Shown: positions 1 to 40,311 of the stretch, piece by piece
Layout: each line of letters begins with the position of its first letter
Position numbering within the stretch: position 1 is the stretch's first letter
Source: a virus
Lineage: Duplodnaviria; Caudoviricetes
IMG/VR virus record: IMGVR_UViG_3300005077_000040
Span: 1 to 41,266 of that record
Strand: one strand, 5' to 3'
Length of the DNA stretch: 41,266 bases
The notes under the pieces: model-generated
Told to the model about the DNA's origin: nothing
Database searches by the model: none
What the model saw: only the letters and a program-made list of their open reading frames with translations
Position numbers and translations under genes: made by a program

Positions 1-98
1 AGCATCCCAATGGTTAATGAATTCGGTGAAACGCCCTGTGCGGACCCGCACGCAGGGTGTTGTGGGGAGCGGGAGAGAAAAACTCCCGCTTACCCGAT
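1..98 (+). mobile_element. 3' end (domains V-VI) of a group II intron, class IIC / IIC-attC-like; the 5' part lies outside the window
   Basis: DV hairpin AACGCCCTG-TGCG-GACC-CGCA-CG-CAGGGTGTT (30-61) with CGC catalytic triad and CG bulge, typical of IIC. DVI stem AGCGGGAG/CTCCCGCT with a bulged A near 92, and the canonical ...ACCCGAT end at 98. Confidence 0.85.
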
Positions 99-279
99 TA
101 GTTTGCGGGATGGGGTTTGTGAATGGACACAAGATGAATTTGATGAATACAATATATGGGAAACTGATTGCGGAAAATCTTTTTGTATTGAAGATGGAAC
201 ACCCACAGAAAATGATATGAATTTTTGCTGCTATTGTGGAAAAAAATTAAAACAGCGGGTGGTGAGGCAGTCAAACTAA
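99..279 (+). CDS. 3' part of a small Cys-rich zinc-ribbon-like phage protein, 5' end interrupted by the intron
   Basis: The first ~30 codons of ORF 10..279 are intron sequence. The remainder, CEW...WETDCG...FCCYCGKKL, resembles small phage Zn-ribbon proteins. The stop codon overlaps the AACTAAC inverse core. Confidence 0.55.
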
Positions 280-354
280 CAATGGAGATAATCGGAATGA
301 CAACTAAGAGCGAAGCGACGCAGGCAGCACGGCCGCTTGAACGATTTGTTATGC
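274..354 (-). repeat. attC-like recombination site (top strand on minus)
   Basis: The minus strand reads GCATAAC-AAATC-GTTCAAGCGG...CCGATTATC-TCCATT-GTTAGTT, a R''-L''...L'-R' layout with the extra C in L''. Confidence 0.75.
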
Positions 355-566
355 GCTTGCGGCTGTCGATCGTGAAGGCAGTTTGCCGCCTACTGCTGCC
401 GCGCAATGTGTGGGTAGGCCACCATTTTGGCGCCTACACGCAGAAATGGTCGGTACATCTTGGCCGATTGGACAGTCGCGGCGTGCTACAAGGGTTGAGT
501 GACCGCGATGCAGTCGCGCGGAACAGCTTGCATAACGCGCCGAAGGATGCGGCGCACAAGCCCTAA
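297..566 (+). CDS. Hypothetical cassette-borne protein
   Basis: In frame with ORF 225..566. GGAG at 284-287 precedes ATG 297, and both lie inside the attC-like site. Confidence 0.4.
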   Translation: MTTKSEATQAARPLERFVMRLRLSIVKAVCRLLLPRNVWVGHHFGAYTQKWSVHLGRLDSRGVLQGLSDRDAVARNSLHNAPKDAAHKP

Positions 567-649
567 CTGACAATAAAAACTTAAAGCGGAGCATAAAATG
601 TCAGATTTTAAACACAGCCCTTCGGTCGCTGTTAATGCAAATGTTAGCC
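530..649 (-). repeat. Degenerate or hybrid attC-like site(s)
   Basis: GCATAAC (530-536) complements GTTATGC (348-354). CCCTAAC lies at 561-567. The minus strand from 649 reads GGCTAAC-ATTT-GCATTAACAGCGAC, an R''-L'' arm, but the partner arm is poorly conserved. Confidence 0.5.
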
Positions 650-669
650 ATCCTAAGCAAAGGAGTTTT

Positions 670-981
670 ATGGCTCAGAGAATTCAACGCAAACGCTCGA
701 AGGGATGGAAGATGCCGCCAAATACAATCTATGTTGGTCGCCCTACAAAATGGGGAAACAATAACAAGATTGGGGATCCACACCCGTTTTTTGAAAATCA
801 TTTTTGCACGCTTGATGATGTAATCTGGCTGTATGAGTGTGATCTAAAAGCGATGGAAGCAGCGGGAATACTCGATGATTTCCTTGCGCCATTACGCGGT
901 AAAGACCTCGCGTGCTGGTGTCCACTTGATAAACCGTGCCATGCCGATGTACTCATACGGTTGGCCGCGGTTTTGTCATAA
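670..981 (+). CDS. DUF4326-like phage protein
   Basis: Motifs QRIQRKR.KGWKMP..TIYVGRPTKWGN and LRGKDLACWCP..PCHADVL. AGGAG RBS at 661-665 precedes ATG 670. Confidence 0.85.
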   Translation: MAQRIQRKRSKGWKMPPNTIYVGRPTKWGNNNKIGDPHPFFENHFCTLDDVIWLYECDLKAMEAAGILDDFLAPLRGKDLACWCPLDKPCHADVLIRLAAVLS

Positions 982-999
982 TTGAAACCGTTGTTAGGC
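964..999 (-). repeat. Half attC-like site (R''-L'' arm only)
   Basis: The minus strand reads GCCTAAC-AACG-GTTTCAATTATGAC-AAAACCGCGG. The complementary arm is missing. Confidence 0.5.
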
Positions 1000-1022
1000 A
1001 AAATAAACATAAGGAGATAGAG

Positions 1023-1355
1023 ATGTTAAATTTCTTATTTGGTATCATTGTAGCTGTTATTTTAATTATTGTGCTGGCAATTTGGTCCAGTAACGATAAT
1101 GAATGGTACAATGCAATTGCTGGAGTTATGGCAATGTTATTAGGAGTTGTAACTATAATAGCAATAACTTTTTATTTCACATTAATTTGGAAATGGTGCG
1201 CATCTGAACAAAAAGCAATCATCATTAATCGAGAATACGGTACAAATTATACAAGAACAGAAGTATTTTACGCCAGTGACGTAATAGATACAATTCGGGA
1301 ACTTGATAGAGAACGAATTGAATTAAATGGCAATCTTATGAAAGATAAAAAGTAA
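1023..1355 (+). CDS. Small membrane protein (2 predicted TM helices)
   Basis: AAGGAG RBS at 1011-1016. Two hydrophobic stretches. AT-rich cassette bounded by GTTAGGCAA (993-1001) and TTGCCTAAC (1356-1364). Confidence 0.75.
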   Translation: MLNFLFGIIVAVILIIVLAIWSSNDNEWYNAIAGVMAMLLGVVTIIAITFYFTLIWKWCASEQKAIIINREYGTNYTRTEVFYASDVIDTIRELDRERIELNGNLMKDKK

Positions 1356-1357
1356 TT

Positions 1358-1418
1358 GCCTAACACAGATTTCAACTTGACTCAGCCTATGGCTTCGCAG
1401 GTTGAATTATAATTAGGT
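1358..1418 (+). repeat. attC-like site (61 bp, forward; R' core degenerate, ATTAGGT)
   Basis: GCCTAAC-ACAG-ATTTCAACTTGAC...GCAGGTTGAAT-TATA-ATTAGGT: an imperfect palindrome with extra unpaired bases on the left arm, directly after a stop codon. Confidence 0.75.
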
Positions 1419-1426
1419 GGCTTTTT

Positions 1427-2050
1427 GTGAATATCTTAGTTGCGTGTGAGTATAGCGGTATCGTTCGGCAAGCGTTCGTGGCTTTGGGTCATAATGTCTG
1501 GTCATGCGATTTACTGCCAACAGAAATACCAGGTCAGCATTATCAAGGCGATGTGCGCGACATGCTGAAAGAAAATTGGGATTTGATGATTGCCCATCCG
1601 CCTTGTACACATCTGGCGGTCAGCGGAGCGCGTTATTTTTACCGCAAGCAGGCAGAGCAAGCCGAAGCGCTGGAGTTTGTCCGCTTGCTTATGAATGCGC
1701 CGATTGAACATATTGCCATTGAAAATCCAATCAGCGTTATTTCATCTCGCATCCGCAAGCCAGACCAAATCATTCAGCCCTGGCAGTTCGGGCATGGTGA
1801 AACGAAAGCAACTTGCTTATGGTTGAAAAACCTGCCAAAGTTACATCCAACAAATATTGTGGACGGCAGAGAGCAACGAGTACATAAAATGCCACCGTCA
1901 CCCGATAGGTGGAAAGAGCGTTCCCGCACGTTCCAGGGTATTGCAAGCGCAATGGCGGCACAATGGTCACGCCACCTAACAAATGCGTGCACCCGACCCG
2001 CCTTCGGCTCTGGTACGCAAGGCGATTCTACGGTCACAACGGGCGGGTAA
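1427..2050 (+). CDS. Short phage DNA cytosine-C5 methyltransferase-like protein
   Basis: N-terminal SAM-binding-like LVACEYSG, catalytic HPPC, ENP motif, QPWQFGH...K.T.LWLK and RSRTF.GIA.AMA.QW. The last ~25 aa read through the downstream attC. Confidence 0.8.
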   Translation: MNILVACEYSGIVRQAFVALGHNVWSCDLLPTEIPGQHYQGDVRDMLKENWDLMIAHPPCTHLAVSGARYFYRKQAEQAEALEFVRLLMNAPIEHIAIENPISVISSRIRKPDQIIQPWQFGHGETKATCLWLKNLPKLHPTNIVDGREQRVHKMPPSPDRWKERSRTFQGIASAMAAQWSRHLTNACTRPAFGSGTQGDSTVTTGG

Positions 2051-2065
2051 CGCTTGCCCTTATAT
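1974..2065 (+). repeat. attC-like site (92 bp, forward; R' degenerate, CTTATAT)
   Basis: ACCTAAC-AAAT-GCGTGCACCCGACCCG...CGGGCGGGTAACGC-TTGCC-CTTATAT. GCCACCTAA (1971-1979) is the exact complement of TTAGGTGGC (1413-1421) at the cassette start. Confidence 0.75.
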
Positions 2066-2304
2066 GTCGAATTTAAAATTTATCCAGGTGCAACGAACAA
2101 CACATCAACGGAGTAATTTATGACAGCCCCACATGATCCAACAACCGCTACGGAATTGCTCAGTTGCCATCTGCGGCAAATGAGATGAATGCTCATTCGA
2201 TGAAATATAAAACAGTTAGTTCCAATTGCGTCGTTAACCTTCAACTAAAATAAAAGGCGTAAACACCACGGGCGGTGTAAACGCAATCCTCCCTCGCCAA
2301 ACAG

Positions 2305-2339
2305 TAAGGGCACGCGCGCGGCGTGCCCTTATCTTTTTT
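2305..2339 (+). terminator. Rho-independent terminator between convergent transcription units
   Basis: Perfect 11-bp stem TAAGGGCACGC/GCGTGCCCTTA followed by TCTTTTTT. Confidence 0.75.
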
Positions 2340-3680: not shown

Positions 3681-4604
3681 TTAATAGTAGTCCCCCAACA
3701 CCGAATCAAACTGCACCATATCCAGCAAATCAATAATCCCGTTATCTTCAAAATCAAACACCGAATCAAACAACCAGTGCCCTAAATAACTCCCCAGCGC
3801 CGTATCAAAAGCAACCATATCCAGCAAATCAATAATCTTGTCGTTATTCCAGTCACCCTTATGCTGCTCACTTGCCTGGCCAGGGACAACATACGCAAAA
3901 ACTTCGTTAGAATACCCGCTCTCATTACCAGCCGTGTCATAAGCCGTCGCCGCAAAATAATACGTCGTATCCGCCCAGAGATCAGTCAGGCATACCGCCG
4001 TCGTATCACCAACATCCTCCGAAAAAACATAATCCCTCGACCCAAAACCATAATAAACCTTATACCCATCCAGATCGGCCTCGTCATTCGCGTCCCAGGT
4101 CAGGCAAACATGCTCAATACATAGCGTCTCAGGCACAGCAACACCCTGCCAGCGCCATTCCACCCAGTCAAGATAAATATTGCGGTCATACTCACCGCTG
4201 AAGTAATCATTGATAAAAGAAAACCGCCAGTCACCGACAGAGCCAACTGACAAAACAAGCGAATACTCAGCCCAGTCGCTATCAGAAACTTGCAACGTAT
4301 CGCATCCTCCAGGAAAACGAACCTCAACCAGGCCATCAGCGCCAGGTACGTAATCTTCCCGCGCACGCACAACAACCGTGCAACAGCCAGATTTATTGAT
4401 TGTTATTTCTGCCGACCCGTTCCCGTAAAACGCCAACAAAGAATCTTCAACAACAACATTCCCGCTGATTATATCAAAAGTTTCAGCCTGCAATCTGTTT
4501 TCTGCAATCTGGCATCCGCCATCAGAAATCCGCCATCCGACAATTTCTAATACAACAACCAGCGCGATAAACGGTAAACCCCGTGCCAAACCAAAACCCC
4601 GCAT
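3681..4604 (-). CDS. Exported modular protein: carbohydrate-binding-like domain, fibronectin III and dockerin-like double EF-hand
   Basis: AGGAG RBS before ATG 4604 and an N-terminal hydrophobic segment. FINDY...DRNIYLDWVE is CBM60-like. LTWDANDEADLDGYKVYYG...YYFAATAYDTAGNESGYSNEV is FN3. GDWNNDKIIDLLD and DFEDNGIIDLLD are duplicated Ca-binding loops. Confidence 0.75.
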   Translation of the reverse strand: MRGFGLARGLPFIALVVVLEIVGWRISDGGCQIAENRLQAETFDIISGNVVVEDSLLAFYGNGSAEITINKSGCCTVVVRAREDYVPGADGLVEVRFPGGCDTLQVSDSDWAEYSLVLSVGSVGDWRFSFINDYFSGEYDRNIYLDWVEWRWQGVAVPETLCIEHVCLTWDANDEADLDGYKVYYGFGSRDYVFSEDVGDTTAVCLTDLWADTTYYFAATAYDTAGNESGYSNEVFAYVVPGQASEQHKGDWNNDKIIDLLDMVAFDTALGSYLGHWLFDSVFDFEDNGIIDLLDMVQFDSVLGDYY

Positions 4605-7951: not shown

Positions 7952-10900
7952 TCACCTCCCCACAACTTTCCGCCGCACCAGCCTTTTTTTCTTTTTCTCC
8001 TTATCAGAAACCTTCACAGCATTCGGATTCGGCTCACTCACCGACACCTGAAACCCAAGAGACTTCCCAATCGACTCAAAAGCATCCAATTCCCCCATCA
8101 TAAAACTGAACATATTCTGGAACTGCACAGGCAGAGAACCCCGCGCCTGCGCCAGCAAGTAGCTCGGCATCCTCGAAAAACCAACAGGATGCCAGCCCAT
8201 ATCCTCATACTGCGACTTCGTCAGGCTAAATTGCAGCTTACCACCCTTATCGTCGCCTTTTCGGAAACCATGCTTCGCCGAACTCGTCTTGTACACCCCC
8301 TTGTAATGCGGCGCCCAACTCTCATCGTCAAGCCCCAGAAGCTCATCCCAATGCGTAAACGGTCGCCCCTTCCAATTGCGCCCCGTCGCAATCTCAAAAA
8401 ACATCCTGTAAATAACACTCCCCTTGTGGTGCATCGCCACAAAAGGATTAATATCAAACTTCCCGTCAGGCGCATTCGGAAAAATAAACTTAATCGGATC
8501 GCGAAAATGCCCAACAGTCGAGAAATACGCCCTGTTTTCCTTCCCACCGCCCAGCAAACGGTACAGCGGCGTAATGTCTACCTCCAGCCACCGTAGCCAA
8601 CCCTTATCCCAGGCAGTCTTATATCGCCGCACAATCCGATCAACATAACTCTCATCATCCTCGTCGTCATCCCTGTCCCAATAAGCCAGCAGCACATTCG
8701 GCATAACCGTCGCCAGAAAAATCCCGCGCCACATCGTCCGCGCCCAGAACTGTTGATAGGCCCGTCGCTCCGCAGCGCTCCCCGCTTTGATCGCCTTCAC
8801 CATACTTCGAATATTACTCTCCGTCCAGTCAGGCGCCAGCGCAAACAACCTGAAAATATGCTGCACCGTCTGATCGCGTCCCTGCTTCCCCGTCATAATC
8901 GTCCGCATCCGCTGCAAATGCAGCCCGCCAAAATCATCATTCACCAAATTAGCGACAATCTCCGCCCGCTCATCAGGCGAAAGCTGCGGCTCCTTCTTCA
9001 GCAGATTGCGATACTCCAGCAGCGCCGTGTACGCCTTCAAGCCAGCGCCAAACCGATTGAACAAACTATGCGCCTGCCGTTCCTGAAACGTAATAATCTT
9101 CTCCCGCACCGCCTTCGGAATCAGCATTTTTTTCATCATATTATCCGTTCGATCCCGATAATACGTCGCCAACTCATCCCAATCCTGAATCCTGCCAATC
9201 GTCAGCCCGTTGCGCACCAAAAGCTCAATCTCAGGCGTCATCTCCTGCACAGCCCTCAGCCCCTTTTTGTACGCCGAAATAATATTCAAATTTTTCATGG
9301 AGGCCAGCGCCGCACCGAACAAATAACTTCTCGAAAACGCCAAATGGTGGAACAGCGACGTTTGCAAAATCATCGCCTTAATCGCAGCATTGTAATTCGT
9401 AATCGTGTTAATACTAGGCACACCCTTCAGCTTGCTCTGCCCCAGAATCCGATTTAATTCATCGGCCACATCATTCGGCGCATACAGCGGTTCCCTCCGC
9501 AAAATCGCCCCGTCCGCCGTAATAACAAAATTCTTCCCCAGCTTCGGAACAAACTTCGTCTCATCGATATTCTTCCCCTCGATTCGTTCCGAAACTCTCT
9601 GAATCTCCTTCTTTTTTTCCTCATTACCGCTCGTCGCCGATTGCAGCTTATTAATAACAACCGTCGCCTCATTCTCAGACATCCCCCGCGCCATCAACGC
9701 CTCTTTCGTGACAGTCACCAGCTTTTCCATCGGCCCGCTCGCCTTACCCGTCTTCGCCTTAGCTGCCATATCCGCAATTCTTTCCAGCCGCACCTTGATC
9801 CAGTCGATCCGCACCGACCCGCGGTACGTATACCACGAAAAATTGGGATGATCAATCCGCTTGCTTCCGACACCCTGCGTAAAAGAAAACAGCTTACTTC
9901 CATTGCTCATCGTAAGCCTCATCCCCTCGCGAATCAGCCGCTTATGCTCGATGACATTCGCCATCTCCGCCTTTAAAATCGCCAGGTTATTTGTCGCACC
10001 GTGAATCTTCAGTTGATACCCATGCGACCATGCCTCCATAATCGTCCCAAAAACTCGCTGCTTCGCGTGCCGCGTCGTCGTCCCAAACTTGCGGAAATAC
10101 TCATCGCTCTGCTTATCATCAAAATCATAAATGCGATTCACATAATTCTCAAGCACATTATGAATCACCCCCTCGTCCATCGACTCCACACCAATCGCCT
10201 GATAAAGTTTCGAAATATCCTCAGCAATCTGCTTCTGCTCATCCGTCAAATTCTCAGCCAGCCCAATCAACCGCCGCTGCTCATCCGTAAACGTATCCCA
10301 GAACTTCTCCCGATGCTCAGGGTTCCGCTTCATATCGATATAAAGATGAATCGCCTCGTCAATATCGTGCCACTTCTTTTCCCACGTCGTCAAAAGAGGC
10401 TGCTTAAATCGCTCCCCACTCCCAAACGTCGGTTTTTTCCCAATGCTCTTCTGAATCCGCTCCTGAATCTTCTGCGCCTCAATCCATGCCTGCTGTGTCT
10501 TCCAGTCGCGTTCCCCAAACCAGTCGTTTTTCAGCTTCTCATAAGCCGATGGAATCTCGGGATAAGCCTCATGCTCGTCCTTCGGCTTTCGCTCCGCCTT
10601 CGCCCTTCCCATCGCCTTATACATAGCAGGAGCCGCGGCCCCACCATACTGAAACTGCGGCGACTTTTCCGTAAGCATAGAAAAAGACGCATCACCATTC
10701 TCATGGTATCGAACGATAACTTCTTCCCAACGCATAACGACATTCGAATCAGTTGTATAAGGCGTCAAAGCCGACCGTCTGTCATCATCAAACCACCGCC
10801 GCAAAACAACATCCCGCGCCTCAATCTCCCCCGCAAGCATCGTATATTGCCCCATCGCCCGCGTATTTATATCGACCAGCTTATTGTGAAGCTGGTAAAT

Positions 10901-13900
10901 CCGTTTTCGCATCTTCTCAATCTGACCCTGAATAGCCCTTCGATCCTTATCAGATTTCGCTTTATCGCGCTTAACAACCAATTCCAGCGCCCGATTCTTC
11001 AGCTTCTTATAAGCCGAAAACATCCGTTCAAAATTGGACGGCAGAAAAAATTCAACACGCCCGCCTCGCGCAAACCCCTCAATGTGCTGGATAGCGTGCT
11101 GAACCTCATGCAACAAAATCTCCTCAGCCCTGGCCGCGTCATTCGCAACGACCTTCATTCCCTTAGTCACATGATTGAACCCACCGTTCGTCGCCTCCCT
11201 CGCCATCGTCGGATAAATAGTAATATCAACCTTGTAATTCTTCAACTCAGGATAAGCCTGAAACAGCGCATAATGCGTCACAACATCGCTCAACTTCCCC
11301 ACAAAATAAGAAGTTTTCGCATCGGCCTTCTCCCATCCCTGGCCCCGCGCCCGCAGCTTAAACGCCCCATCGGGAATCTCAAATCGCCATTTCCCATCAA
11401 GCCCTCGGAACCAGCCCGTCTCACGACGAATCCTGTCAATCGTCATATCCCGCCGCGTCTGCGACTCCGCCACAATGTCCAGCCGTTTAGCCTCCTCCTC
11501 GGAAAACTTCTCCCCATACATCACCTTCGACATCAAAGCATTATACTCATCCTTCTCCTCGTTCGCCCTGCGAATCAACGGCCCAAAATGCCGCTCCATC
11601 GCCTTAGCCTTCAAAAGCGTATGAGAGTCAGCCGTCCGTGCCCCTTGCCCCGCATATTGAAACTGCGGAAACCCCTCATAAAGCGCCGTCTTCCGCATCG
11701 CATCCGTAATCCTAATCGCATGTACGGGCGGCCCTTCTTCCGCCTGCGATCTACCAGCCCAAATCCGCAATCGGGACACTTCCCCCCCAAACTGCTTCAC
11801 AAACTTCCCGAAATAACTCGGCAGCTTCCTGTCATAAAACTCAACCATCCCCTCGCCGCCAATCACCAGGCTATCTCCCTCAATAACGCCCTTCTTATCA
11901 CCAGAATCGAGTATCTGCTTCGCCATATTTTTACCAAGAATATCGCCAAGCTCAGATTTATCAGCGTCACGGTCAAAAACCCTTAACCCATTTTTTTCAC
12001 CATGAATAGTTATTTTATCTTCATGGTAATACCATTCAATTCTGTCCACCAGTCTCCGCGTCATGTCCTCATACCGTCGCACCTGCTCCACCCCCGTCGT
12101 CCATGCAACATAATCAAACCCATTCTCCGCCGCATACCGCAAAACATACTTAAATCCAAGCAAGCTCCACGCCTTCTCATCCTTAAACGGAGCATCAGGG
12201 ACAGTATCGAAATGACGATCTGTCGCCTTTGCACCGTATTTTACTAATTTCTCCTTTGCTGCCCCAATAGCGTCCGCCTCTGTATCCGCATTATCAACAT
12301 TCATTAAATAGTTGCCGTCCCTATCATACACATCCCAAACCGAACTCATTGGCGTGCTTATACGAGCCGTCAATCCTTCCAGATAATATTCCACATCAAA
12401 ATTTGGATTATCCCCATACCCCTCTTTTTTCCCCTTTTGATGCCAATCGCTTTGCACTTCCTCAATCAGCAATATTCTATTATCTTTTCCCTCATAATCC
12501 GATGGGCTTGGCTTTTCACCTATTTTGCCGCCTTCAACCCAATTATCATAATCCAAATTAAATTGATCTGCGCCACCTAGCCGTCTTTGTTGCCGCTCCG
12601 TAAACCGAACGTGCATCAAAACATTCACATCATCAGACCAATGGCCGTGCGTAAACGTCGGCTTTTCATCCTCGCTAAATTTTTCTTTCAGGTCTTCCAG
12701 CTTCGCGTCATCCTGGGCAGTCCGTTTATTTCCCAAATTTTCAAGCCTGCGCATCTCCTCATTGTCGCCAATAGTAAACGTTGATGCCATCGGCAGCTTA
12801 ATTAATATCTCCCGATAACCCTCATAAGGCATCGGCGAAATAAAATTCTCACCCTCATACTGCCCGCGAATTTTGACCTCTTGTTCAAGTCGTTTCTCAA
12901 GCTCATCAACCCGCTCGTCATAAATGCGTTGATACGTCTCATCAAACAAATCATAAAGCTCATCCTCATCGGCGACTCCAAGCCGCTCAATATCCGCCTG
13001 CACCTCATCCTCGCTCGCATCCCCGCGATGATAAAATAAATCATGATAATACGGCGCATTCAAATCAAGCTCACTGCCCACCTCGGCAAGCGTATCATAC
13101 TCAATTTCCTGCAACGCCTCAGCCTTTTTCTCCTCAAGGTCAATACGGTCATCAAGGTCATCAAAGACTTCTTTCCCATACTTCCGAGTCACATCCTCAA
13201 CAACCAGCGTCACCTTATTCCGCGCAACAAACCCCAAAAGCTCATCCTTCGAAACGTCATTTTTCCCAGCCAGAAAACCATCCAGATCAATCCAGGCCAG
13301 CTCCGCATCCTTCACCCCGTTGCGAACCAGCCAATTCCTCACCGCACCAGCCTTCATACTTTTCGGAAACCGCCTCTCAACAACCCTCTCCGCCTCCGAA
13401 AAATACACAGGCGCATACCCACCCTCAGACCGCAGCACCCTATCTTTCTTTTTTCCCGTCGCCTTCCCCGCGTCAATCCTGTCAACAACGTCAACCACGT
13501 CCCTCTTTTCTTCACCACTGTCAACAACGTCCCTCTTTTCTCCACCCCCGTCAACAACGTCCTTTTCTTCTTCCCCCTTCCCAATCTCCGAATCCCCAAA
13601 CAACGTTTTCCCAGCCTTCCAAAATTCCCCACCCCTCCCTTGCATTCGATAGGCCACCATCGACGAAAACTCATCTAGGCTTATCGGAACACCAACCAGC
13701 TTTTTAAACGCAACAGAAAGCCTTAAAATGGCTCGTTTCAACCACGCCAAAAATCTATGTTTCTGTTTTCCGTGAATTTCCGCACCCTTCTCACCAATAG
13801 CCTGCACAAGCGCCTCATCCAGGTAGTCAGAATACCCCGCATCCTGCGCGTTTTTCGCGTATCGCGTCCCCTTTATCAAGGCGATCCCATGGGCATAAAG

Positions 13901-16900
13901 CTCAGGCTCATGCACCCGCAAATAATTCATAACAGGATGGGCAAACTCATGGAACACCGTGTCCTTATTCATCCGCCGCACATCGATATAAATCTTATTC
14001 GTCTCAGGATCATAAAACCCCAAAGGCGCCCTCCCCTTAGCAATCTTCCCCTGCGCCTGAAGCGAAGCAACCCGCGCATCGAACATCTTCGTACTTTTAA
14101 CAACAGCTATCCCGCCAACCGCCTTGTGCAGCATCTCCGTCGCCGTGTCTAACCACTCCTCATCCACTTGCTGCGCAGTCCCTATTCCCTTGCTTTTATA
14201 ATGACTAATTCGGGATTCCTGCACCCCCTGCTCACGCAAATCAACAATGCGCTCAACCTCGTCTGCAACTCTACGAGACGGCATCAAAAATCCAGCTATT
14301 TCATTGCCAGACATAATAACAGCGCCCATCGAATTATCATTCACCATAAGAGAAAACTTGGGCACAATCTTCTGCAAATACGAAACCTGCACTTCAGGAA
14401 ACGCAACGTAATTACCTTTGTCAGATAGAAACACCGCCATTTTGTTGTTACTACCACTCTTTGATAAAAAACTAAAAACATATTTGCTTTTAACCGCATT
14501 AGGAACAACGGTATCATATAAATGGTCATACTTGACATTGCGGTTACGAATATCAAACGTCTCAGCAATATTTTTTAGCTCTTTAGGTACAAACTTGCCT
14601 TCAAGCGCCCACTTCCCATTTGTTAATGCACCACTTTCGTTTTTATGCAATGTATCTTTTTTTCTTAAAAATTGTGTAATTGCAGCCTTCGGGTTCAAAG
14701 TCTCCCGATACCTGCCACCCATCTCTTTTTCAACCGCCGAAGCCTTTGGCGCTTTTTTCTGTTTAACGCCCTCAAACTCCACCGTTTTCGTTTGAATAAC
14801 CCCGCCTTCTTCCTCAAACTTTCTACGTGCCTCATCCTCCATCGCAGGTGTAAGGCTTATTTCCTTTTCCTCGTTAAAATACGTCGTTTCAAATTCAGCT
14901 ATTTTGTTGGTAACTTCCCTAAGCTCATCAGCCGAACGCTTCACCTGCTTTTGTATATTGCGAATCTTTTCATTGTCGCTGTCAATATTTTTATTGGCAA
15001 CATCAATCATTTTTTCCAGAAAAGCCTTGCTTTTATCGTACTGGGCCTGGCGTTTTTCTTCATCTTTAATTTTATCATCAGGAGTAAGATTGGCAAGTTT
15101 TTCCTGGCGCTCCGCCAAATATTTTTCATTTTGGTTCAGGCTGTTATAAGCCCTGCTCAGCCGACTGTTAAATACTCGCTCCATATCCCGCGTATTAGAC
15201 CGCTCTCGCTGCATTCGGTCATAATCAAACCGCAGCTTCAACAGCTCCTTTTTAACGGGATCAGTCTCCATCTCAATAGCAATCAGCTCGGAAGATGGCA
15301 TAGCCCCGCCAACCATTTCCTCCTCAGTCGAAATTTCCCTGTCAACATCTTTCTCCCAAAGCGCCTCGTTCCACCCTTTTTTGTGCATCACAATATTAAG
15401 CGAAAGATTGTCAAAACTCCCGCGCATCAGCATGAGATGGGTTATCACAACATCATTCTCGTTCCCATACCGAACGCCACGCCCGTGTCGCTGCCTGAAC
15501 GCACCAGGTGTATACGGTATGTCAAGGTTCCAGATATGCTTCGTCTTAACCTGCAAATCCATACCCTCGCCCATACTTGCAGTCGTGCCAATTAATACCT
15601 TTATTTTACCATCATTGTAAAGGTCGGCAAGCTCCTGTTTTCGTTTATCCTTTTTCTCCCCGCTAACAGAAGATTCATTCCCATTATTCGGGTTCGTTAC
15701 TTCCTTGCCATTCATAATCCCGATCTGTTTTGCCTCAAACCCGCGCTTGGTCAATTCATTTTTAATTTCACGATGCAAATTCTCTGTCAGCTTACCAGCA
15801 TCCACCTGTGTATGGCCAGAATTATCCAAAAATATCAAATGGCCATGCTCTTTGTTTTCTTTGAAAGCAGCCTCAATTCCGTCTAAAACAAATTCCAGCT
15901 TGTCATCTTCACTATTGAACGTCCGCATGTCAATTTCAATTCCAGCGTGCTCACCGCCGTAAAGTCGCGGATCAACCGCCGCATTGCGGCCACCCGTGTA
16001 AATTGCCAGAAGTGTGTCACCCCCTGGCTGTCTTTGAAAAGCCTTTGGCACAGCGCCTTTTCGCCTGTCCAAATCAGCCATCACAGCCGCCACAAGGTCG
16101 CTGGAATTTAAAAAATGCTTTAACTGGTTCTCGGCAGGCACTTCAATATGTGGCATCGCCTCCATCGGAATATAATCGATATACCTGTCCATAATATTCC
16201 GAAGTTCAGGCGCATTAATAATCGATCTTAGAATACTTTTCGGCTTGTGCTTTTCAGGGTCTTCAACAGTGCCCAAATTAAAAAACATATTTGCAAAACT
16301 TCGGTCGTCGCCAACCCCGTACTCATCTAAAATTTGATAATCCATGTGCCGCATCATCGTGTAAATTTCCATCGGCTTATTTGGAGTAGGCGTGGCCGTC
16401 AACATGAAAACATTGCTGTTATTGTTCCGTTCGGCAATGTAATTTGCCTTAAATCGAAAATCATAACTCCGCGCACTTGCAATCGTTACATTGGTTTCGT
16501 CTTTACCGCTCGCATTAAACCCGAACGCTATTCCTAAACCAAACTTGTTAAGTTCACCGCGAATACCAATATTTTTAAACGCATGGGCCTCATCAGCAAC
16601 CAGCATATCAATCCCAAGTTTATCGAACGTCAGCCGTGTATCTCGTGGCATATTACGAATGGCAGATACATACCGTTCAATCTTCTCAAGTAAAAGTGCG
16701 TATTTGCGCCCAGCTATCCCAGGGTCGTCCAAATGTTCGAGCACAACCGCGTTAATAAACCGAAGTTCATCGTCAACAGGAAGTTTCACATGGGCAAATC
16801 CCTCGTGACTAATCAGCACATAATCCGCGTTAGTATTGGAAAGGTCAAAAAGTTTCTTTGTCCGCTGATCCTTGCTTAAATTTCCAAGATTAATTATTTT

Positions 16901-19900
16901 TGCATCAGGAAAAAGCGTCTTAATATCCCGTTCCCACTTTTTAATCGTTTTTGCAGGAACCACAAACATCGGCTTTTTTGCTGCGCCACGCTTTTTAAGA
17001 ACCCTGGCAAGCGCAATCGAAGCAAACGTTTTTCCGCCGCCAACGTCGTGGGCGTTAATCCCCTTGCCCTCATAAAAAGCCTTAATAATCCACTCAATCT
17101 GATTTTTTCTCAAACGAATGGGAGAGTTCGCCTCAATCTCGTTTAGAACATCCTGGATGAGATAAATAGCCTTGCGGTAATTCGGTTTCACATACCCGTT
17201 AAATTTCGAATTGTATACAAACTCAATCTGTTCAACCAGCGCGGCATCTTCCTTAACATTATTAAGAATGCTTTGCTTTATTTCGTACAGATGTTCTTCA
17301 GCTTCGCGCATTCGGGCCATATAACTGCCCATCGGCTCCACAGAACCATCATCAAACCATTTTCGGCTCACAAGCACATGGTTGTTTAAATATTTTTCAT
17401 ATATATCGTCATCATGTACCCAGTGCAATTGTTTGTTTTTATCGGGTACCTGCCGTGCGGTAAACCAGCCTTTATTTTCAATCAACGGGTGAATCCATGT
17501 TTCATTCCCCCTGAAATCAATCTCGTCAATCGGAAGCGCATCTGGCCGAACCCGCTCAAGCTCGGCAATTTGTTTTTTTAATTTGTCTGCAACAGTCCCG
17601 TCGTCTCCCCACTTATCTAAAATAGCCTGCGCCATTTTAATTTTATCATACACAAACCCAGAATAATACAAAATATCATTCTGTACAACAGTCTTATCGC
17701 CAAACTCAACAACAGAATACCCGTTCTTAAGCAATTCCTGAAACTCGCTGTCTTTAATCAAATCCGCATCAGCGATATGAATAAACCCCTTATTATCCTC
17801 GCTCGCAATCGCCCTGTCAATAAGCGGCGAATCTTTTGTCGCCTCCTTGCGCCCGCTTCCCGTGTGCCGCACTCGTTCCTTAAAAACATCCGCAGGCTCA
17901 AAGTTTTCATTAAACGTACTCGTCAGCTCATTGAACAACGGCATTTCTTTGTGCATTTTAAAAAATCCGTGCAGTTTTTTATCTGCAATCGGGGGCGTTT
18001 TAAACTGATTTTTATAGTCGTTAATCAAACCAATCCCAAGCTCAGAATCGTAACTATCACCCATTTCCTGGAATTCAGTCGCCGCGTTTTTAATCCGATT
18101 TAACATATCAATTTTATCATAAAGCTCACCAGTAAGCGGCTTATAAATCTTGGCAAACCCATTATGAAGATCATTAAATGGAATATACTTATCCATCACA
18201 TATATCTGTCCAGAACTGAACAAAATATTCATTTCAAAATTAGAATCAACAGAATGATAATATTTTTCATTCCCGTCTTTATCCTTACCCATAGGAAGAA
18301 AAACATTTTGCTTTACCATAACATTCGGATTCTCTTCCATCCAGCCCTGCAAATCATGGTAGCTTTCGGGAATACCACCTTCTTTTTGTTTATCCTTTTC
18401 TTTCTGCTTTTCCTTCAAATACGGTGTGTAATCGACAGATATATCGTCCAGCCGCGCCTCTCCCTCAACAACATACATCGGCTTACCGCCATACAGCTTA
18501 TCAACGCCCTCAACCAGCTCGCCCAAAATATTTTCAGGATGAAGATTATAATAAGAATTTATTTTAAGCCCGTTTTCTTGGGTGTCAACAATCTCAAACG
18601 CCGCGTTATTCTCTGCCATCTCAGGCCGCGCCTCAACGCCGTCAGGACGTTTCTGCATAAAAATAATATCAACCATCACGTCCGTATGCGCCGTTTTTGT
18701 AAAATGGCCCTGCGGCAGCCTGAATGCGCCGATAATATCAGCCTTGCTCGTAATCTCTTTTCGGGTTTTTTTGTCTAATTTATCCATCGTGTAATGGGAG
18801 GAAATAAAAGCAACAATCCCGTCGTCACGAACGCGGTCCAGCGCATGTATAAAATAAAAATCATGCAGCGTCTTAATATCTGGCCTGTTCCGAAGCCGTC
18901 CCGCTCCGCGTTCCTCGCTGAACGGTACGTTGCTCACCACAAAATCATAGCCAGAATCAACGAAATCTTCAAAAGATAAATGGTAATGTTTCCCCTGGGG
19001 ATAAAGTGCAGATACTACCTTATGGTTGGTCTCGTCAATATCTATCGTCGTCCATGCAAGCTCAGGCCAGTTGCCAACAAAGTTGCCGCCGCCAACCGAT
19101 GGCTCCAACGCAGTTTTAGGCTTAAATCCAGCCTTTTCCAGCGCATTGTAAATCGCACGAATTGTATCATAATCCGTGTAATGCTGATTAAGCGCCTCTT
19201 TCGTCCCACTGCTCAGGCCGCCTTCGCCAGTATATTGACGTAATATGTCCTTATCGTCGTCTGTTAAATCGGAAGATTGTTTTGAAAGGATTTCCTTAAC
19301 GCGGGAGTTGATGCTGTTTCTTTGCCCTTTTGTAAGTCGCGGAGATTCTTTTTCTCGGAGGGAATAATTTTGTACCACACGTGGCTCGGTGGTTGGTTTC
19401 TCACCACGTATGTCAGTTGCGCCTGGTACCACTGGCTCGTTTCCAGCCCCGCGTACAGCTTCGCTAATTCCTCCAGCGGCCTGCTGTCCTTCCACTTGTT
19501 CTGTTCCAGTGGATACCTCAGCGCCTGGCACACCTGCCCCAATTGCAAATTCAGAATCGCGTACAACTTTGTCCGAACGCTCACTTCCTGGTTTTCGCTC
19601 CCCTGCTCTACCCTCAATATTCCCTCCAGGACTAACGCTCGTTGTTCCTTCGGTACCCGTTGTGCCAGTTTGTCGTCCAGATTTTCCTGTTTCATCAGGT
19701 TTCTCCTTATTCTCTGTTTCATTATACGCAGATTCTTTTCCAATAGTTTCAACATCCACACCCTCGACAACACGTTCCGAATCCATCCCCGAATTATCCA
19801 AACCAGGATAATGCCGCGCACCCAAATACATCGACCTCAAAAATGGCCGAATGGCATCCCCAAAAGTCTCAACCATCTTTCGGGCAAAGTCCACAAACTT

Positions 19901-22900
19901 TCGCGTCCCTGCCTCAATATGGTAAACCGCGTACTCCGTCCCCAAAGCCAGAAACTCAGGATCAACGCCCACATTCAAATTTTTCAGTTTCTCGCGTATC
20001 CGCCGCTCAAGCTCCGCCGCTCGTTCCTGGCTCACCAAAACATTCTTCGCCCCATACTCAGTCGACTTTTCCCCGCTCTCCGCTTTTTCTGTTTTAACTT
20101 TTTTAAAACCATCATCCCATTTTTCTTGACTCAAAAAAGATGGAGAAGTAACCCGAACTAACGGCTGCTCGCCTTTGATTGGGTTTTCAATAAGAACGCC
20201 CTCTATGGTATGATTGCGCTGTTTTTTTGCAACAAAATCACCATATTTAAGATTATTTTCTGCCAGGGCTTCATCCCATGAAAATTCATCCGCCATCGGC
20301 GATCTGGCATCTGGCATCGGCTTTTCGCTTTTCGCCCCACGCTCCACGTCTTTTTCTTTTCCCGAATCCCCTTCCCCGATCTCCGAACCCCGATTCAATC
20401 GTTCCGCCAACCCCTCAGCAAACCGAACCGCCTGTTCCGTCCGCTTCTTATACCACACCTTATTCCGCATACTCCATCGGAACCCGTTCGCCTTCACCTC
20501 CGAAACAACATCCGCGCTCGGCTTCTCGGCAAACTTCAGCTCAACCCCACCCTGCGCCTCATTCATCAGAACATCAACAACCCGCGTCTCGCGTCTAACG
20601 TCTTGCTCTTCCTTATCTGCTCCACTTTCAACCTTAACAAAATCCACCTTATTCAATTGTGTATCGCCAGTGATATTCGTTTTCAACATCGTCCCCTGTT
20701 CCCAGGTAACTTTCACTGGCCCAGTAATAGTTATTTTACTACCTGGTTTTGTTTTTACCATGTCGCCAACGCGAATCACTGGCGATTTATAGATAGTGTC
20801 AATGAATCTTTGCGCCGACTTTTTGTCCCAAAAGTGCATTGTCCTGACTTGTGTTTTATCTTTACCAAGCGGGGAAGGCACAACAATTTTAACATTCCAA
20901 CTTCCTCCACTAGTTTCCCCAGGCCTCTTTACAGGGTTACCAACTTCAAATACTTCAACAGTCTCATACCCCCAATTCCCAGCAGGGTCTGCAACAGGGT
21001 CTGCAAATGTCCCAATCGGTTCTTGCTTTACCGCTCCCCCCTCCTCGATTCTCACTTCTCGCTTTCCGCCCGCATCGTCTACCGTTTTATCACCCGTTTT
21101 AAGCCCCTCAGCGCCACGATCTTTTTCCCCAGCGCCCTTTTCCCCAGCTTTTTTCTCCTCATCCGCCATCTGTGATCGGGCATCTGCTTTATAATTGCGC
21201 ACAACATACTCAATATACTGCTTCTCATGCCTCGACGAAAAACTATAATTCCTCCCCTTCTCATCAACAACAATAGCCACATGAGGAATAGCACCGATCT
21301 TATAAGTCTCGGTCCTGTAATTCGCCTTTTTCAGCTCGCGATCAATAAGCTCCTTTGCCGAAATAACAACCCCGTCATTGTCCTTGTATTTTTTCTTCTC
21401 AACCACCGCAATCATCTCAGCGTGCTTCTGGTCTTCCTTCCTTGCCTCATAAGCCTGCTTCTCCGCAGCCTGCTTCGCATCGTACTCAGCAGCTTTTTCC
21501 TTGCCAACAAACTCCCTCAACACCGCAATCGTATCGCGCTGATTACGTGGCAAAGCAATCCCCGTATACGCCGAAAAAAACTCACGAGTAAAAGAATTAT
21601 CAGTATTCCCCACCCATTCAATTAATCCCGCCAACTCCCTATCATCAATCATCCGCCTGATGGAATTCTCCCGATCAGCAATCAAAGTGTCGCGGTTTCC
21701 AAAACCAGCCAATCCAGATCGAAACTTCTCCCGCGCCTTCTCGATAATTGGCTGCCGCTCCGCACCATAGTCAGCAAGCCCACCAGCTTCGCCCGTCACT
21801 TCTCGCTTTCCGCCCTTATCGTCTGCCGTTTCACCCAAGCGCTCCTTAGCTTGCTTCACTGCTTTCCTGAAACCCATCTTATACTTGCCAGAAACATCAT
21901 ACTCCCCAGAAGCCAGTAAATCGTCAAATTCCTTCTCAACCGCCGCAACCGTTTCCTCATTTTCTGCCTCATTCACCCGCTCAACAAACCGCGCATCAGG
22001 CATGTGTTTCTTAATTGGTTCGCTTTCCCCTCGTATTTTCAACGCTTCTTTAGCTAAGAATACCCCATTATTAGCATCCTGCCTCACCCGATCCATTGGC
22101 ATCCGCAAATACGGATTTTCCTGCGTCTCGCTTCTCTCGTCTTGCTTCTTGCCTTTCTCAACATCAGAAATTGTTAATCCCTGTTCTGAAATTGCCTTTT
22201 CTTTCAGCTCAGGATATTCCGCCAGCTCCAACGGCTCTTTATTTTTCGCTTTTTCTTCCTCTGCGCCTTCGCGCCTCTGCGTGACACCCTCTTTTTCCTG
22301 CTCCAAACGCCCCTCATCGACCGCTGACGGCTGACCGCTGACAGCCTTCCCCTCAACCACGTCCTTCAGCGCCAAAAGCTCCTTCTTCTCATCGGCATAA
22401 TCAGCAGCGGATGGATCATTCCCTCGTTCCATCTCCTCAATAGCATCAATATTATTAGCGATATACAGCCAAGTATTCCCATGCAGCATTTCCCGCATAG
22501 CGGCAATATATTCATCATCATAGTCCCCAGACTCCTCCATCTGGTCCAGCCGCTCATTCTCCGAAACGATAAACGCCTCAACCTTCTCATTTCTCACCCG
22601 CCCAACAATCCCAGCATCCGCTTTTTCATCCGCTTTCGTCTTTTCATCTGGCATCTGCGATCTGGCATCTGCTTTCGTCTTTTCATCCGCAATCCGTGAT
22701 CCGACATCCGCCTTTCCATCCGCCGTTTCACGTTCACCATCCTTCTTCTGATGCGCCTCCGTCAGTCGACTCAGAACAATCTCCGCAAAACTTCGCTTCT
22801 TCTTCTCATCGGTTTCGTTCTCGCTCGCCACAAAATCATCCAGAACCTGCTGACCAACCGCCTTAGCCGTCTTTTTATCCAGCCCCGTCCTCTCAGCAAT

Positions 22901-24355: not shown

Positions 24356-24360
24356 TTTCG

Positions 24361-25185
24361 TCACTTTCCGCCGATAGTTTTCCACTGCTGGTACGTCATA
24401 CCAGCATTTTTCTGCAACATCTGATCAACAGCCCGCTCCCACTCCCTCAGCCCCTCAGCCGTGCTTCTATCCCACGGCAAACTCTTTAAAGCATGGGCAA
24501 CAACCCCGTTTGCCGTTTCAAACTGATCCCGCAAATCCCTCGGACTAATCTCTATCCCCTGCCGCTTCATATCCTTTGCAATCGCATCAAACCTCTGCAA
24601 ATCCTGATACACCTTAACAGAATCAGCATAGCTCTTTCGCAACGACGCCATATTCTGCATCTGATCGCGGGACATCGCAGGCTGATAAATCGTATCGTTA
24701 TTCTGATAAGTCGTATCGTCATTCTGAATTTTTGATTGAACGAACCCGTCTTCCCCTGGCAATGCCGTATACTCAGGCTCCATCTCTTTCGTCGCCTTGT
24801 CAATGTCGCCGATCTTCTTTATCCATTTAGCGATCTTCTCGTCATAGCCATTCTCGGCCTTTTTGCCTTTCGGCCCAGCTCCGCCGCTTTTAATCTTCTC
24901 GATCCCACTCGCATAGCGCATTCTCAAATACCGCGCCTTCAGAGCATCCAGCTCCTGCTTCTTTCTATCACCAAAAATACTCGGCTTCCCAGGGTTATAA
25001 CGATCATACTGCAACGAATCCGCCCTCGTCACATCAGGACTCGCCAGCCGCATCAGGTTCTCATACTTACCCTTCTCATACTGCTGCTGCATCGTCTTTT
25101 CTTTATCCTCGTCTGGTTTAAACCCAGCAGGATAAAACCCCATCTTCTTTCTGTAAATCTCAGCCTGTTCCTTGCTCCAGTTCAT
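24361..25185 (-). CDS. Putative internal virion/ejection protein
   Basis: Helical, charged protein directly upstream of the polyvalent protein. GGAG RBS before ATG 25185. The function call is positional. Confidence 0.6.
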   Translation of the reverse strand: MNWSKEQAEIYRKKMGFYPAGFKPDEDKEKTMQQQYEKGKYENLMRLASPDVTRADSLQYDRYNPGKPSIFGDRKKQELDALKARYLRMRYASGIEKIKSGGAGPKGKKAENGYDEKIAKWIKKIGDIDKATKEMEPEYTALPGEDGFVQSKIQNDDTTYQNNDTIYQPAMSRDQMQNMASLRKSYADSVKVYQDLQRFDAIAKDMKRQGIEISPRDLRDQFETANGVVAHALKSLPWDRSTAEGLREWERAVDQMLQKNAGMTYQQWKTIGGK

Positions 25186-30676: not shown

Positions 30677-31198
30677 TTACTTATTCACCTTCGCATTCGT
30701 CCACGTTTTCACCGAATCCAGATCGCCCCCCCCCTTCGTGAAAACAACATCAACCCCGTCAAACATAGCAAAATCGTCAAACAGCCCCTCGAAATAATAC
30801 GTGTGAAACGTACTGTCAACAGGAAGCGTCGCCACAGCCACTACATCGCTCCGCACCTTCTCAACAATCCCTCGCCCCAGCGCATTCACATTCGTTTCCC
30901 GCTTCTTTAACTTGAGACCGTAAGCCGTCACCGTCAGCGTGTCCGTCTCGCCAGTGAGCGTATCGGCCATCGCCGTATAAATATCCAGGTCAACACTCCC
31001 ACTGTTATAAATCTTCTCCGTCGAATCACTCTTTGAATTGAACCAGATCGTAACCGTCGAAGACGTCCGCGTATAAATCGTATCATACACCATCACAGCA
31101 GGGCACTCAATGAACGACGCAGGCTCCTTAATGAGCTGCGCAAACGCCCCAGGCGTAACCATCGTTAAAACCAGCAACACAAACAATAATCTTTTCAT
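30677..31198 (-). CDS. Signal-peptide-bearing beta-rich protein of unknown function
   Basis: Signal peptide MKRLLFVLLVLTMVTPGAFA, with a leader duplicated at the 7872 gene. Confidence 0.65.
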   Translation of the reverse strand: MKRLLFVLLVLTMVTPGAFAQLIKEPASFIECPAVMVYDTIYTRTSSTVTIWFNSKSDSTEKIYNSGSVDLDIYTAMADTLTGETDTLTVTAYGLKLKKRETNVNALGRGIVEKVRSDVVAVATLPVDSTFHTYYFEGLFDDFAMFDGVDVVFTKGGGDLDSVKTWTNAKVNK

Positions 31199-31248
31199 CT
31201 CACCCTCATTAGCAATTATTGATTCACAATTCAAAATTCCGCTTCGGC

Positions 31249-31911
31249 TTACTCACTCACCAGCCCAATCCTGTTCTGGATACTCAACGCATCCGTATTC
31301 AGCTCCCCCAGCACATCCGTGATACTATACTGCTTGAATCGCTGATTCTGATAGTGAATCTTTGCAGCCGCAGCCATCGCATAAAACTTTTCCTCGTAAT
31401 GCGTCGCCTTTCGATCATTTCCATCCATCTCAAACAGCACATACAGCACATAATCGACCAATTTGATATGCTCCCGCACAGGGATAATCGGACTCGTCCC
31501 GCTCGTCGAGGTATTCCGCTTGCAATACCAGAGATGAAAATACCCGTCACTTGACGGCTTCGGAATCAACCGAACTTGCTCATCCTCAATCCAGTACGCA
31601 ATAGGAGTCCCCGTAATAAGCGTATTCGCGCTATCCAGCAGCCGCACATCGCTGCGCTGATGCAACGGATCGATACTGATCCCATTCCAGGTAACGCGAA
31701 ACTCCTTCACAAAATCATCAGGCAAATCGTAAGTATCAGCAAGCCCGTCCACGCTTGTACTAATCGCGTCGATAGCCTCCGTGCAGAAACTCTCCGCGAT
31801 AAAAATATTCTCAGCCTCACGGACCAAATTCTCCACATCAATAGAAAGATTGATCCCCGCATTGTCCGCAACCAACCGCACCCGATCTGCCAGCTCAGTA
31901 TAAGTCGACAT
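31249..31911 (-). CDS. Head-tail adaptor (head completion) protein
   Basis: Motifs YDLPDDF, GTP.AYWI...L.PKP and P.IP..EH..LVDY. Located downstream of the capsid genes. GAGG RBS. Confidence 0.7.
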   Translation of the reverse strand: MSTYTELADRVRLVADNAGINLSIDVENLVREAENIFIAESFCTEAIDAISTSVDGLADTYDLPDDFVKEFRVTWNGISIDPLHQRSDVRLLDSANTLITGTPIAYWIEDEQVRLIPKPSSDGYFHLWYCKRNTSTSGTSPIIPVREHIKLVDYVLYVLFEMDGNDRKATHYEEKFYAMAAAAKIHYQNQRFKQYSITDVLGELNTDALSIQNRIGLVSE

Positions 31912-31923
31912 ATATCCTCACCG

Positions 31924-31965
31924 AAAAAAAATAATGGCGACCGTCACCAATCGTAACGGCCACCA
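31924..31965 (-). terminator. Rho-independent terminator after the capsid/decoration genes
   Basis: Minus strand TGGTGGCCGTTAC-GATTG-GTGACGGTCGCCA followed by TTATTTTTTTT. Confidence 0.75.
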
Positions 31966-31970
31966 ATCTG

Positions 31971-32462
31971 TTAAGCCCCTGCAATTGTCACAAACCGCCC
32001 AAGCAAAAACACGGTTTTCACTGCGTCACCGCTCGTATTCGCGTCAATCGCAATGGCGCCGCTATTCACGCTTTCCGTCGTGCTTTCACTGGTGAACTTT
32101 CCAGCCGTACTGATAACCTCCAGATAGTCGCCAGCCGTCACACTGCCATTCACCTTTGCCAAGGCAATCCCGAATGTCTGAAACCACGTGATCCCCGCCG
32201 CAGTCGTCGTCTTTGCCGCCACAGCCAGTTGAACTTTTCCCACTGGGTTTGTGGCCGTCGCCGCAGCCGTCACCTCGCGCCCGCTAGTAACAGCAAACGT
32301 CAGCATTTTAACATCACCCAGCGTCACAGCCGCAGCAGCGTAAGCGGAAATATACTCCTTCCCGTCCACGCTCTTGCGAATGCCGCAGGCCGCTGGCGTA
32401 TCGCTCAAATTGAACAGCACGCGACTCACCGCCTTGTTTATTGCAATACTTGGATAACCCAT
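31971..32462 (-). CDS. Putative capsid decoration/cement protein, paralog B
   Basis: Ala/Thr-rich, similar to the upstream gene. GGAG RBS before ATG 32462. Confidence 0.6.
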   Translation of the reverse strand: MGYPSIAINKAVSRVLFNLSDTPAACGIRKSVDGKEYISAYAAAAVTLGDVKMLTFAVTSGREVTAAATATNPVGKVQLAVAAKTTTAAGITWFQTFGIALAKVNGSVTAGDYLEVISTAGKFTSESTTESVNSGAIAIDANTSGDAVKTVFLLGRFVTIAGA

Positions 32463-32564
32463 TGCTTTATCTCCCATTGTAATATATGCGCAGGCGGGGT
32501 TATCTACTCGACCCGACGGGCAAAGCAGCCTGCCCGCCCGCACACATGAATAAGGGTTTCTTAG

Positions 32565-40268: not shown

Positions 40269-40311
40269 ATACAGCATAACAAATAAAATATTAGCATACT
40301 AAAAGGCACCG

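Follow-up and report, generated by a model that had tools for sequence, protein, structure and literature searches.

A phage gene-cassette array with attC-type sites of both polarities and a group IIC intron end at its first core

Whether a phage can carry its small accessory genes as integron-type cassettes, and which way round such cassettes would be built, is the question raised by the first two kilobases of IMGVR_UViG_3300005077_000040, an IMG/VR virus record (Duplodnaviria; Caudoviricetes) whose full 41,266 nucleotides we refer to as the window. A preliminary description, made from the letters of the sequence, had read positions 99 to 2065 as an array of phage genes bracketed by complementary ends, separated by attC-like palindromes and shuffled through attC-type recombination. 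Our computational follow-up supports the attC-type shuffling through covariance-model matches and a breakpoint that falls exactly on a core, but the canonical architecture which that description implied is wrong in the 5' part of the array, and a change of site polarity and an intron had been missed. Phage clusters of attC sites lacking integron integrases (CALINs) are already known, and what this locus adds to them is a base-exact breakpoint for one of its own cassettes, a polarity switch and the end of an attC-type intron.

attC-type sites and their polarity

As Rfam holds no attC model, we built our own arm matrices and covariance model. The first matrices were derived from 39 intron-defined sites, with 4 doubtful rows left out, and were then rebuilt from 104 contiguous sites, for which arm type was classified correctly in 104/104 cases for each arm (leave-one-out); the covariance model comes from 60 contiguous bacterial attC sites and its E-value calibration is rough. 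Both tools were controlled on bacterial DNA, where 111 of 112 scanner sites in intron loci shared the polarity of the intron target, and all 32 covariance-model hits in 27 loci had the same polarity (one of them being a training site). The three sites of the published TJE1 CALIN score between 18.7 and 27.1 bits. Applied to both strands of the whole window, as the preliminary description had proposed, the model returned two matches, at 274-354 on the minus strand and at 1974-2065 on the plus strand (E ~0.017 each), with the next best at E=1. Weak matches at 40274 and 7689 (E ~1) were taken as chance; the former (40274-40332, plus strand, 12.6 bits, E=1) lies near the divergent promoters found at the other end of the contig.

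All motifs quoted in the preliminary description lie where it placed them (TAGTTTG at 99, CAAACTAAC at 272-280, GTTATGC at 348, GCATAAC at 530, GTTAGGCAA at 993, TTGCCTAAC at 1356, TTAGGTGGC at 1413 and GCCACCTAAC at 1971). The complementary cassette ends are therefore present, but taken alone they are weak evidence, with 3 TTA-starting 7-mers having their complement 150-700 nt downstream compared with 1.5 in shuffles. The attC-like palindromes fare better in that arms scoring at least 10 bits are well above chance between 99 and 2100 (5 against a shuffle mean of 0.41, with 0/300 shuffles reaching 5, and 4 in the other 39 kb), although some junctions fall short of a full site. By folding alone, most junctions did no better than shuffles, and folding was not used as site evidence.

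The array begins with cassette 1 (100..279, plus strand), encoding a Zn-ribbon-like phage protein (phrog_10312, E 2e-10; 3,646 relatives at E<=0.001). It is followed by attC site A (274..354, minus strand), which scores 20.9 bits on the minus strand against 5.9 on the plus strand, has intact cores and an L box of 4/6, and holds both the ribosome-binding site and the ATG (297) of the next gene. Given that all the genes are on the plus strand and site A is on the minus strand, the 5' sites are reversed, with the coding strand corresponding to the bottom strand. Cassette 2 (297..566, plus strand) encodes an 89-residue conserved hypothetical protein with its N-terminus in the hairpin and a disturbed 3' end that reads into the next site. 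This site is a long composite attC, again of reversed polarity (518..649, minus strand), found by the rule-based scanner with an L box of 6/6 and given only 6 bits by the covariance model; its loop contains the stop of gene 2 together with the ribosome-binding site and ATG (598) of the DUF4326 gene, and 528-650 folds with a z of -2.0. The 24 homologues of gene 2 besides itself (53-88% local identity, most ending DAGA) naturally end GCA TAA C, which favours the pairing of GTTATGC (348) with GCATAAC (530) that had been proposed. In the fold of the window's own site, however, GCATAAC at 530 occupies the L-box position, with a second AAC 12 nt before it at 522-524, and the stop lies outside the reading frame. 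The crossover AAC of 518-649 is ambiguous between the two AACs, and the polarity is minus under either reading.

Cassette 3 (598..981, plus strand) encodes a DUF4326 protein (PF14216, E 1.5e-21) and has lost its own 3' core, the protein ending RLAAVLS* in the window and RLAN, with a natural AAC, in its closest relative. At its junction with the membrane gene there is half of a reversed attC, comprising the R''-L'' arm only (965..999, minus strand), and this arm (993) is of left type both with the first matrices (L 11.4 vs R 2.4) and with the contiguous training set (L 6.1 vs R -3.8). Cassette 4 (1023..1355, plus strand), which encodes a predicted membrane protein of 110 residues with 65 homologues besides itself, consequently has an R''-type arm on both sides, as the next site is canonical. 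This is site B (1358..1418, plus strand), with a left-arm score of 10-12, 12/11 spacing, an L-box of 6/6 and an R' triplet of ATT, not GTT. Cassette 5 (1427..2050, plus strand) encodes a C5-type DNA methyltransferase (phrog_757, E 3.7e-76) whose reading frame runs on across site C and stops in L'. Site C (1974..2065, plus strand) is also canonical (21.1 bits on the plus strand, left arm 20-23 bits) and has CTT, not GTT, as its R' triplet. Its right end (2041-2059) doubles as a terminator-like stem, which may explain the altered R' box. There is thus a polarity switch at the membrane gene, with reversed sites upstream of it and a canonical last site. The five array genes are real genes, and the profile matches bear out the phage cargo previously named (DUF4326, C5 methyltransferase and Zn-ribbon).

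With two covariance-model matches 1.6 kb apart and one scanner match, the region has what is expected of a CALIN, at least two attC sites in the space of a few kilobases. It is not a plain one, given its reversed 5' sites and the intron at its start; the gene-then-attC order, in which the coding strand is the top strand, is seen at sites B and C only and is absent from 274-649. Compared with classical integron cassettes (PMC5027507), the array has the same R''-L''-loop-L'-R' anatomy, bulged L'' base, AAC/GTT core, complementary cassette ends and paucity of non-coding DNA. It differs from them in that its sites contain start and stop codons, no intI is seen, and the hairpin precedes the gene, with the coding strand as bottom strand; this last feature is shown for cassette 2 and would also apply to cassettes 1, 3 and 4. 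We considered and rejected a universal rule of in-frame cores, since it holds for all five of the window's 5' cores but for only 3/16 in other viral loci (by a rough open reading frame test), and the AAC of the methyltransferase is out of frame.

Cassette mobility in related loci

Gene 2 was found in 7 other viral loci, and the comparison with one of these, L327, locates a cassette boundary to the base. Identity rises from 16/60 before AAC278 to 58/70 across the hairpin and 133/170 across the gene, then falls to 12/60 beyond 517, so that the shared block corresponds to 278-517 of the window, and the neighbouring genes differ on both sides. The L327 orthologue of site A scores 29.2 bits, also on the minus strand. 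Since identity sets in at AAC278 to the base, the hairpin that precedes gene 2 belongs to the cassette. A second, independent pair of viral loci, L183 and L229, shares a 406-bp block that is 93% identical and runs from upstream AAC to downstream AAC, with flanks matching at only 14/60 and 13/60. Units therefore move with breakpoints at the core, as seen at the 5' end for the window and L327 and at both ends for L183 and L229. The gene-content breakpoint anticipated by the preliminary description is thus exact at AAC278 and does lie on a core, but the G/TT crossover it envisaged is AA|C on the coding strand in the 5' part. Two further features of these loci deserve mention. L327 has a cluster of 13 tRNA matches (12954-15964) situated ~5 kb downstream of the reversed array in which it carries its copy of cassette 2, and this locus appears to derive from a much larger phage (the contig being 13% complete). 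L229 carries a membrane-gene cassette copy (1957-2362) in which the upstream hairpin has ATT for GTT and the downstream site is missing, resembling the decay at site B.

The reversed polarity extends across the homologous loci. Covariance-model hits lie opposite the strand of the anchor gene in 56/56 cases in 81 membrane-gene loci (duplicates included), in 6/6 cases in gene-2 loci and in 4/4 cases in 80 methyltransferase loci, all four being in one locus, L022. Where hits directly flank homology-anchored genes in other contigs, 14 of 14 are reversed, and site C of the window is the only canonical hit in the homologue-locus collection. Among the 65 distinct membrane-gene loci, an upstream arm was present in 8, always of left type (that of L213 probably by chance), and 4 have a downstream right arm too; beside these the membrane gene of the window is the only case with left arms on both sides. 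No plasmid relatives of sites B or C were found. The closest methyltransferase relative (L006) is 89.7% identical in nucleotides over 1442-1966 of the window and has no attC. It is flanked by a direct repeat (3963-4007 and 4551-4595; 19 nt exact, followed by a similar ribosome-binding and start region), which suggests a second, repeat-based way of moving this gene.

The phage CALINs described by Qi et al. (2023; PMC9892861) provide the nearest comparison. In the part of that work available to us, 17 are reported, with methyltransferase cassettes and, in P12002L, attC sites of divergent direction; IntI1 activity was shown for five phage attC sites, including sites of H101 and TJE1. The window resembles TJE1, H101 and P12002L, as they are presented there, in having an attC cluster among small phage genes, no integrase in view, methyltransferase cargo and covariance-model scores in the TJE1 range; it differs in having two polarities within one co-directional row of genes and in that an intron lies at its first core. 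The available text of Qi et al. carries no description of sites reversed relative to their genes, and its figures may show orientation. By our model, TJE1 is canonical and H101 is reversed: four hits in H101 (KR534323, 75.9-78.0 kb; 30919-32987 of our locus L339), including the published, IntI1-tested PH101_attC1, lie opposite the annotated genes. If so, IntI1 activity seems to have been demonstrated already for a reversed phage site, although the available text of that paper does not say so. Our literature search found no paper on reversed phage cassettes, mixed-polarity arrays or IIC-attC introns in phage, most subscription papers being outside its coverage.

The group IIC intron end

Positions 1..98 (plus strand) are the 3' end of a group IIC intron, with domain V at 30-61 (32 nt, CGC triad), domain VI at approximately 68-98 and the terminus CCCGAT. 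Rfam RF00029 matches 29-98 on the plus strand (49.1 bits, E 8e-7). The terminus directly precedes TAGTTTG, a 3' exon (99..105, plus strand) that is the remainder of an attC core, namely the bottom strand of R'', and is complementary to CAAACTA at 272-278. The intron has a class C domain V and an IIC-attC-like 3' end, and its best plasmid matches are in or near class 1 integron arrays; the 42 nt spanning domain V are identical in three of five plasmid-borne introns compared, and the CCCGAT|TA junction is found in all five. It thus shares with IIC-attC introns of the S.ma.I2 type, as far as they are covered in the accessible parts of PMC3001079 and PMC7923331, the 42-nt identity in the domain V region, the CCCGAT end and a TA exon in an attC core. 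It differs, being known from 98 nt only, in residing in a phage and in running in the same direction as the adjacent gene rather than opposite to it. The TA of its 3' exon fits TTGT/T insertion in an attC bottom strand, the 5' exon lying off the contig.

This orientation is informative as IIC-attC introns insert in the bottom strand of attC and hence oppose cassette transcription, according to the available portions of the same two papers. Our bacterial controls comprised 85 loci, including 80 with a related reverse transcriptase; the intron end was recognisable in 69, and 63 had enough downstream DNA. Of these 63, 58 have an exon beginning with TA; the open reading frame after the intron is on the opposite strand in 51 and on the same strand in 3, with none found in 9. 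In the window the gene that follows, encoding the Zn-ribbon protein, is on the strand of the intron, unlike in most controls and contrary to the usual IIC-attC orientation, and the reversed polarity of the first site is therefore indicated. The start codon of cassette 1 is probably in the missing 5' exon, with only a TTG at 103 present and no ribosome-binding site before it, and removal of the intron by splicing would thus likely be required to give the Zn-ribbon gene its start. In some homologues the protein begins immediately ahead of the first cysteine, and this, together with the TTG at 103, makes such splicing likely rather than certain.

No reverse transcriptase was found in the contig, the exact domain V pattern occurred in 0 viral stretches, the intron end had no match among 50,697 phage records, and an IIC-attC reverse transcriptase query found no relative in viral contigs; matches to reverse transcriptases in phages were at most 47% identical. 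A further 13 phage-type loci, the majority carrying cassettes, likewise had no group II intron.

Origin of the array

The anatomy of the attC-type sites, their strands, the breakpoints and the intron junction are observed here; the recombining enzyme is inferred. We consider it fairly probable, at roughly 0.68, that this is a plus-strand array of attC-derived sites, the upstream ones reversed and the last canonical, which was built by a host integron integrase and is now partly frozen. Where the sites are reversed, the recombinogenic bottom strand would be the coding one, and the mobile unit would be an upstream hairpin with its gene, the hairpin often supplying the ribosome-binding site and start codon. 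A host IntI would move these units on the coding strand, with the crossover at AA|C at the 3' end of the gene, a position mapped by comparison for cassette 2. The IIC-attC-type intron would probably have used its normal bottom-strand target, hence its shared direction with the genes. The R''/R'' junction at the membrane gene may stem from a single crossover joining a bottom strand to a top one; recombination of the top strand at R'' has been documented, though infrequently (PMC5027507). Such a junction would block ordinary excision of the membrane gene, after which the neighbouring sites may have decayed, and this is consistent with the damage seen around that gene. The array is likely to be a junction between phage-style and bacterial-style cassette pools. 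It is probably partly decayed, and as most of its sites are damaged, present-day activity is doubtful.

A number of observations weigh against this reading. Only 2/5 junctions reach a covariance-model match, and with rough E-values; site A folds no better than shuffles (z +0.86); the arm at 643 scores alike as left or right (12.7 vs 12.6); and site B has no covariance-model match, its polarity being read from one arm and the spacing. Most homologues lie outside cassettes, with no arm at all in 57/65 membrane-gene loci, no covariance-model hit in 79/80 methyltransferase loci and both arms in 0/76 DUF4326 loci, two of which have a lone downstream arm of canonical type. A longest-open-reading-frame test of gene strand in viral loci gave 16/28 plus, a test that failed on short phage genes, and gene direction in H101 comes from its GenBank annotation, with no PHROG hits. 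The intron is present as 98 nt, its 5' exon and reverse transcriptase being off the contig, and one case of a non-attC IIC intron inserted into a top strand has been recorded (in the part of PMC7923331 available). Finally, no recombinase is seen, with ~31% of the genome missing.

The source of the recombinase is where the strongest alternative arises, namely that the architecture is as described but was driven by an integron-type or other tyrosine recombinase encoded by the phage, in the missing part of its genome. The record is a linear virus contig estimated to be ~69% complete, and its break lies on the array's 5' side, inside the intron remnant. Neither an integron integrase nor a tyrosine recombinase was found in it, and intI is absent from the sequenced part of the genome, attI and Pc not having been searched for; the absence of an integrase, correctly stated in the preliminary description, thus carries little weight. 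A complete cassette-bearing 58-kb phage, G011, has two tyrosine recombinases, one of which is a 326-residue Xer-like enzyme encoded ~1.5 kb upstream of a reversed attC array (L329:1268-2248). We rejected both as IntI candidates, the better of the two scoring 24 bits against a cut-off of 265. The integron integrase model TIGR02249 was above cut-off in 0/8 and 0/5 cassette-related records, including the complete H101 and TJE1, and we regard a phage enzyme as unlikely.

It is less likely again that the sites are dead relics and that genes with their hairpins were spread by homologous or illegitimate recombination, the chemistry of attC no longer being relevant. The damaged cores (ATT, CTT), the half-deleted site, the poor folding of site A and the direct repeats with which the nearest methyltransferase relative moves instead would all suit such a history. 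Base-exact breakpoints at the AAC core in two independent pairs, and a polarity that is uniform across homologue loci, do not. Marginally more doubtful still is the proposal that the intron built or flipped the cassettes, with recombination between intron copies followed by intron loss joining hairpins to ordinary phage genes and leaving the reversed layout and the switch. An IIC-attC-type intron end exactly at a core fits this idea, as do cargo genes that are mostly found outside cassettes, one at 90% nucleotide identity, and a cassette-building role for such introns was proposed by Leon and Roy (2009), as cited in the available part of PMC7923331. Against this, the 13 other phage-type loci lack a group II intron and no relative of the intron reverse transcriptase turned up in viral contigs, and the intron may be a late passenger. 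That the array is an ordinary CALIN of canonical layout, in which every gene precedes its own attC and the intron sits in a top-strand R', is very improbable, for although sites B and C are canonical, TJE1 is a canonical phage array with a methyltransferase and a top-strand IIC intron is on record (PMC7923331, seen in part), site A scores higher on the minus strand and the hairpin travelling with gene 2 is the upstream and not the downstream one, which contradicts this arrangement for 274-649.

One may speculate that the locus captures cassettes in the making and a conversion of polarity, with ordinary phage genes (the methyltransferase has a 90% identical relative that lacks attC) becoming cassettes, an attC-homing intron being spliced in sense in the course of this, and the head-to-head R''/R'' junction being the exchange crossover between the bacterial and the mirror-image phage pools. 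We offer this tentatively, and think it rather unlikely to hold.

The remainder of the contig is that of a tailed phage. The five small plus-strand genes in positions 1-2065 form the end of a phage plus-strand operon, which a terminator-like hairpin (2304..2332, plus strand) separates from convergent structural genes; minus-strand genes from 2356 on include those for the terminase, portal, major head and tail proteins. Promoter and terminator counts over 1-2500 were no higher than in shuffles. Among the virion genes is a single open reading frame of 5,477 residues (7952-24385, minus strand) with SNF2/helicase and LPD23 domains, probably encoding a giant ejected polyvalent protein. Neither a late-region gene nor the Zn-ribbon gene, used as queries, turned up any close relative of this phage.

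How cassettes are made, and how the integrase's strand selectivity produces a single orientation, are open questions in integron biology. This locus offers short, defined substrates for addressing them, comprising sites of both polarities, a gene between R'' arms, a near-identical relative of a cassette gene that is not itself in a cassette, and an attC-type intron at a core, and these would suit tests of strand choice, of cross-polarity recombination and of the intron hypothesis. It also suggests that scans which assume a gene followed by its attC misassign phage cassettes, including the published H101 sites.

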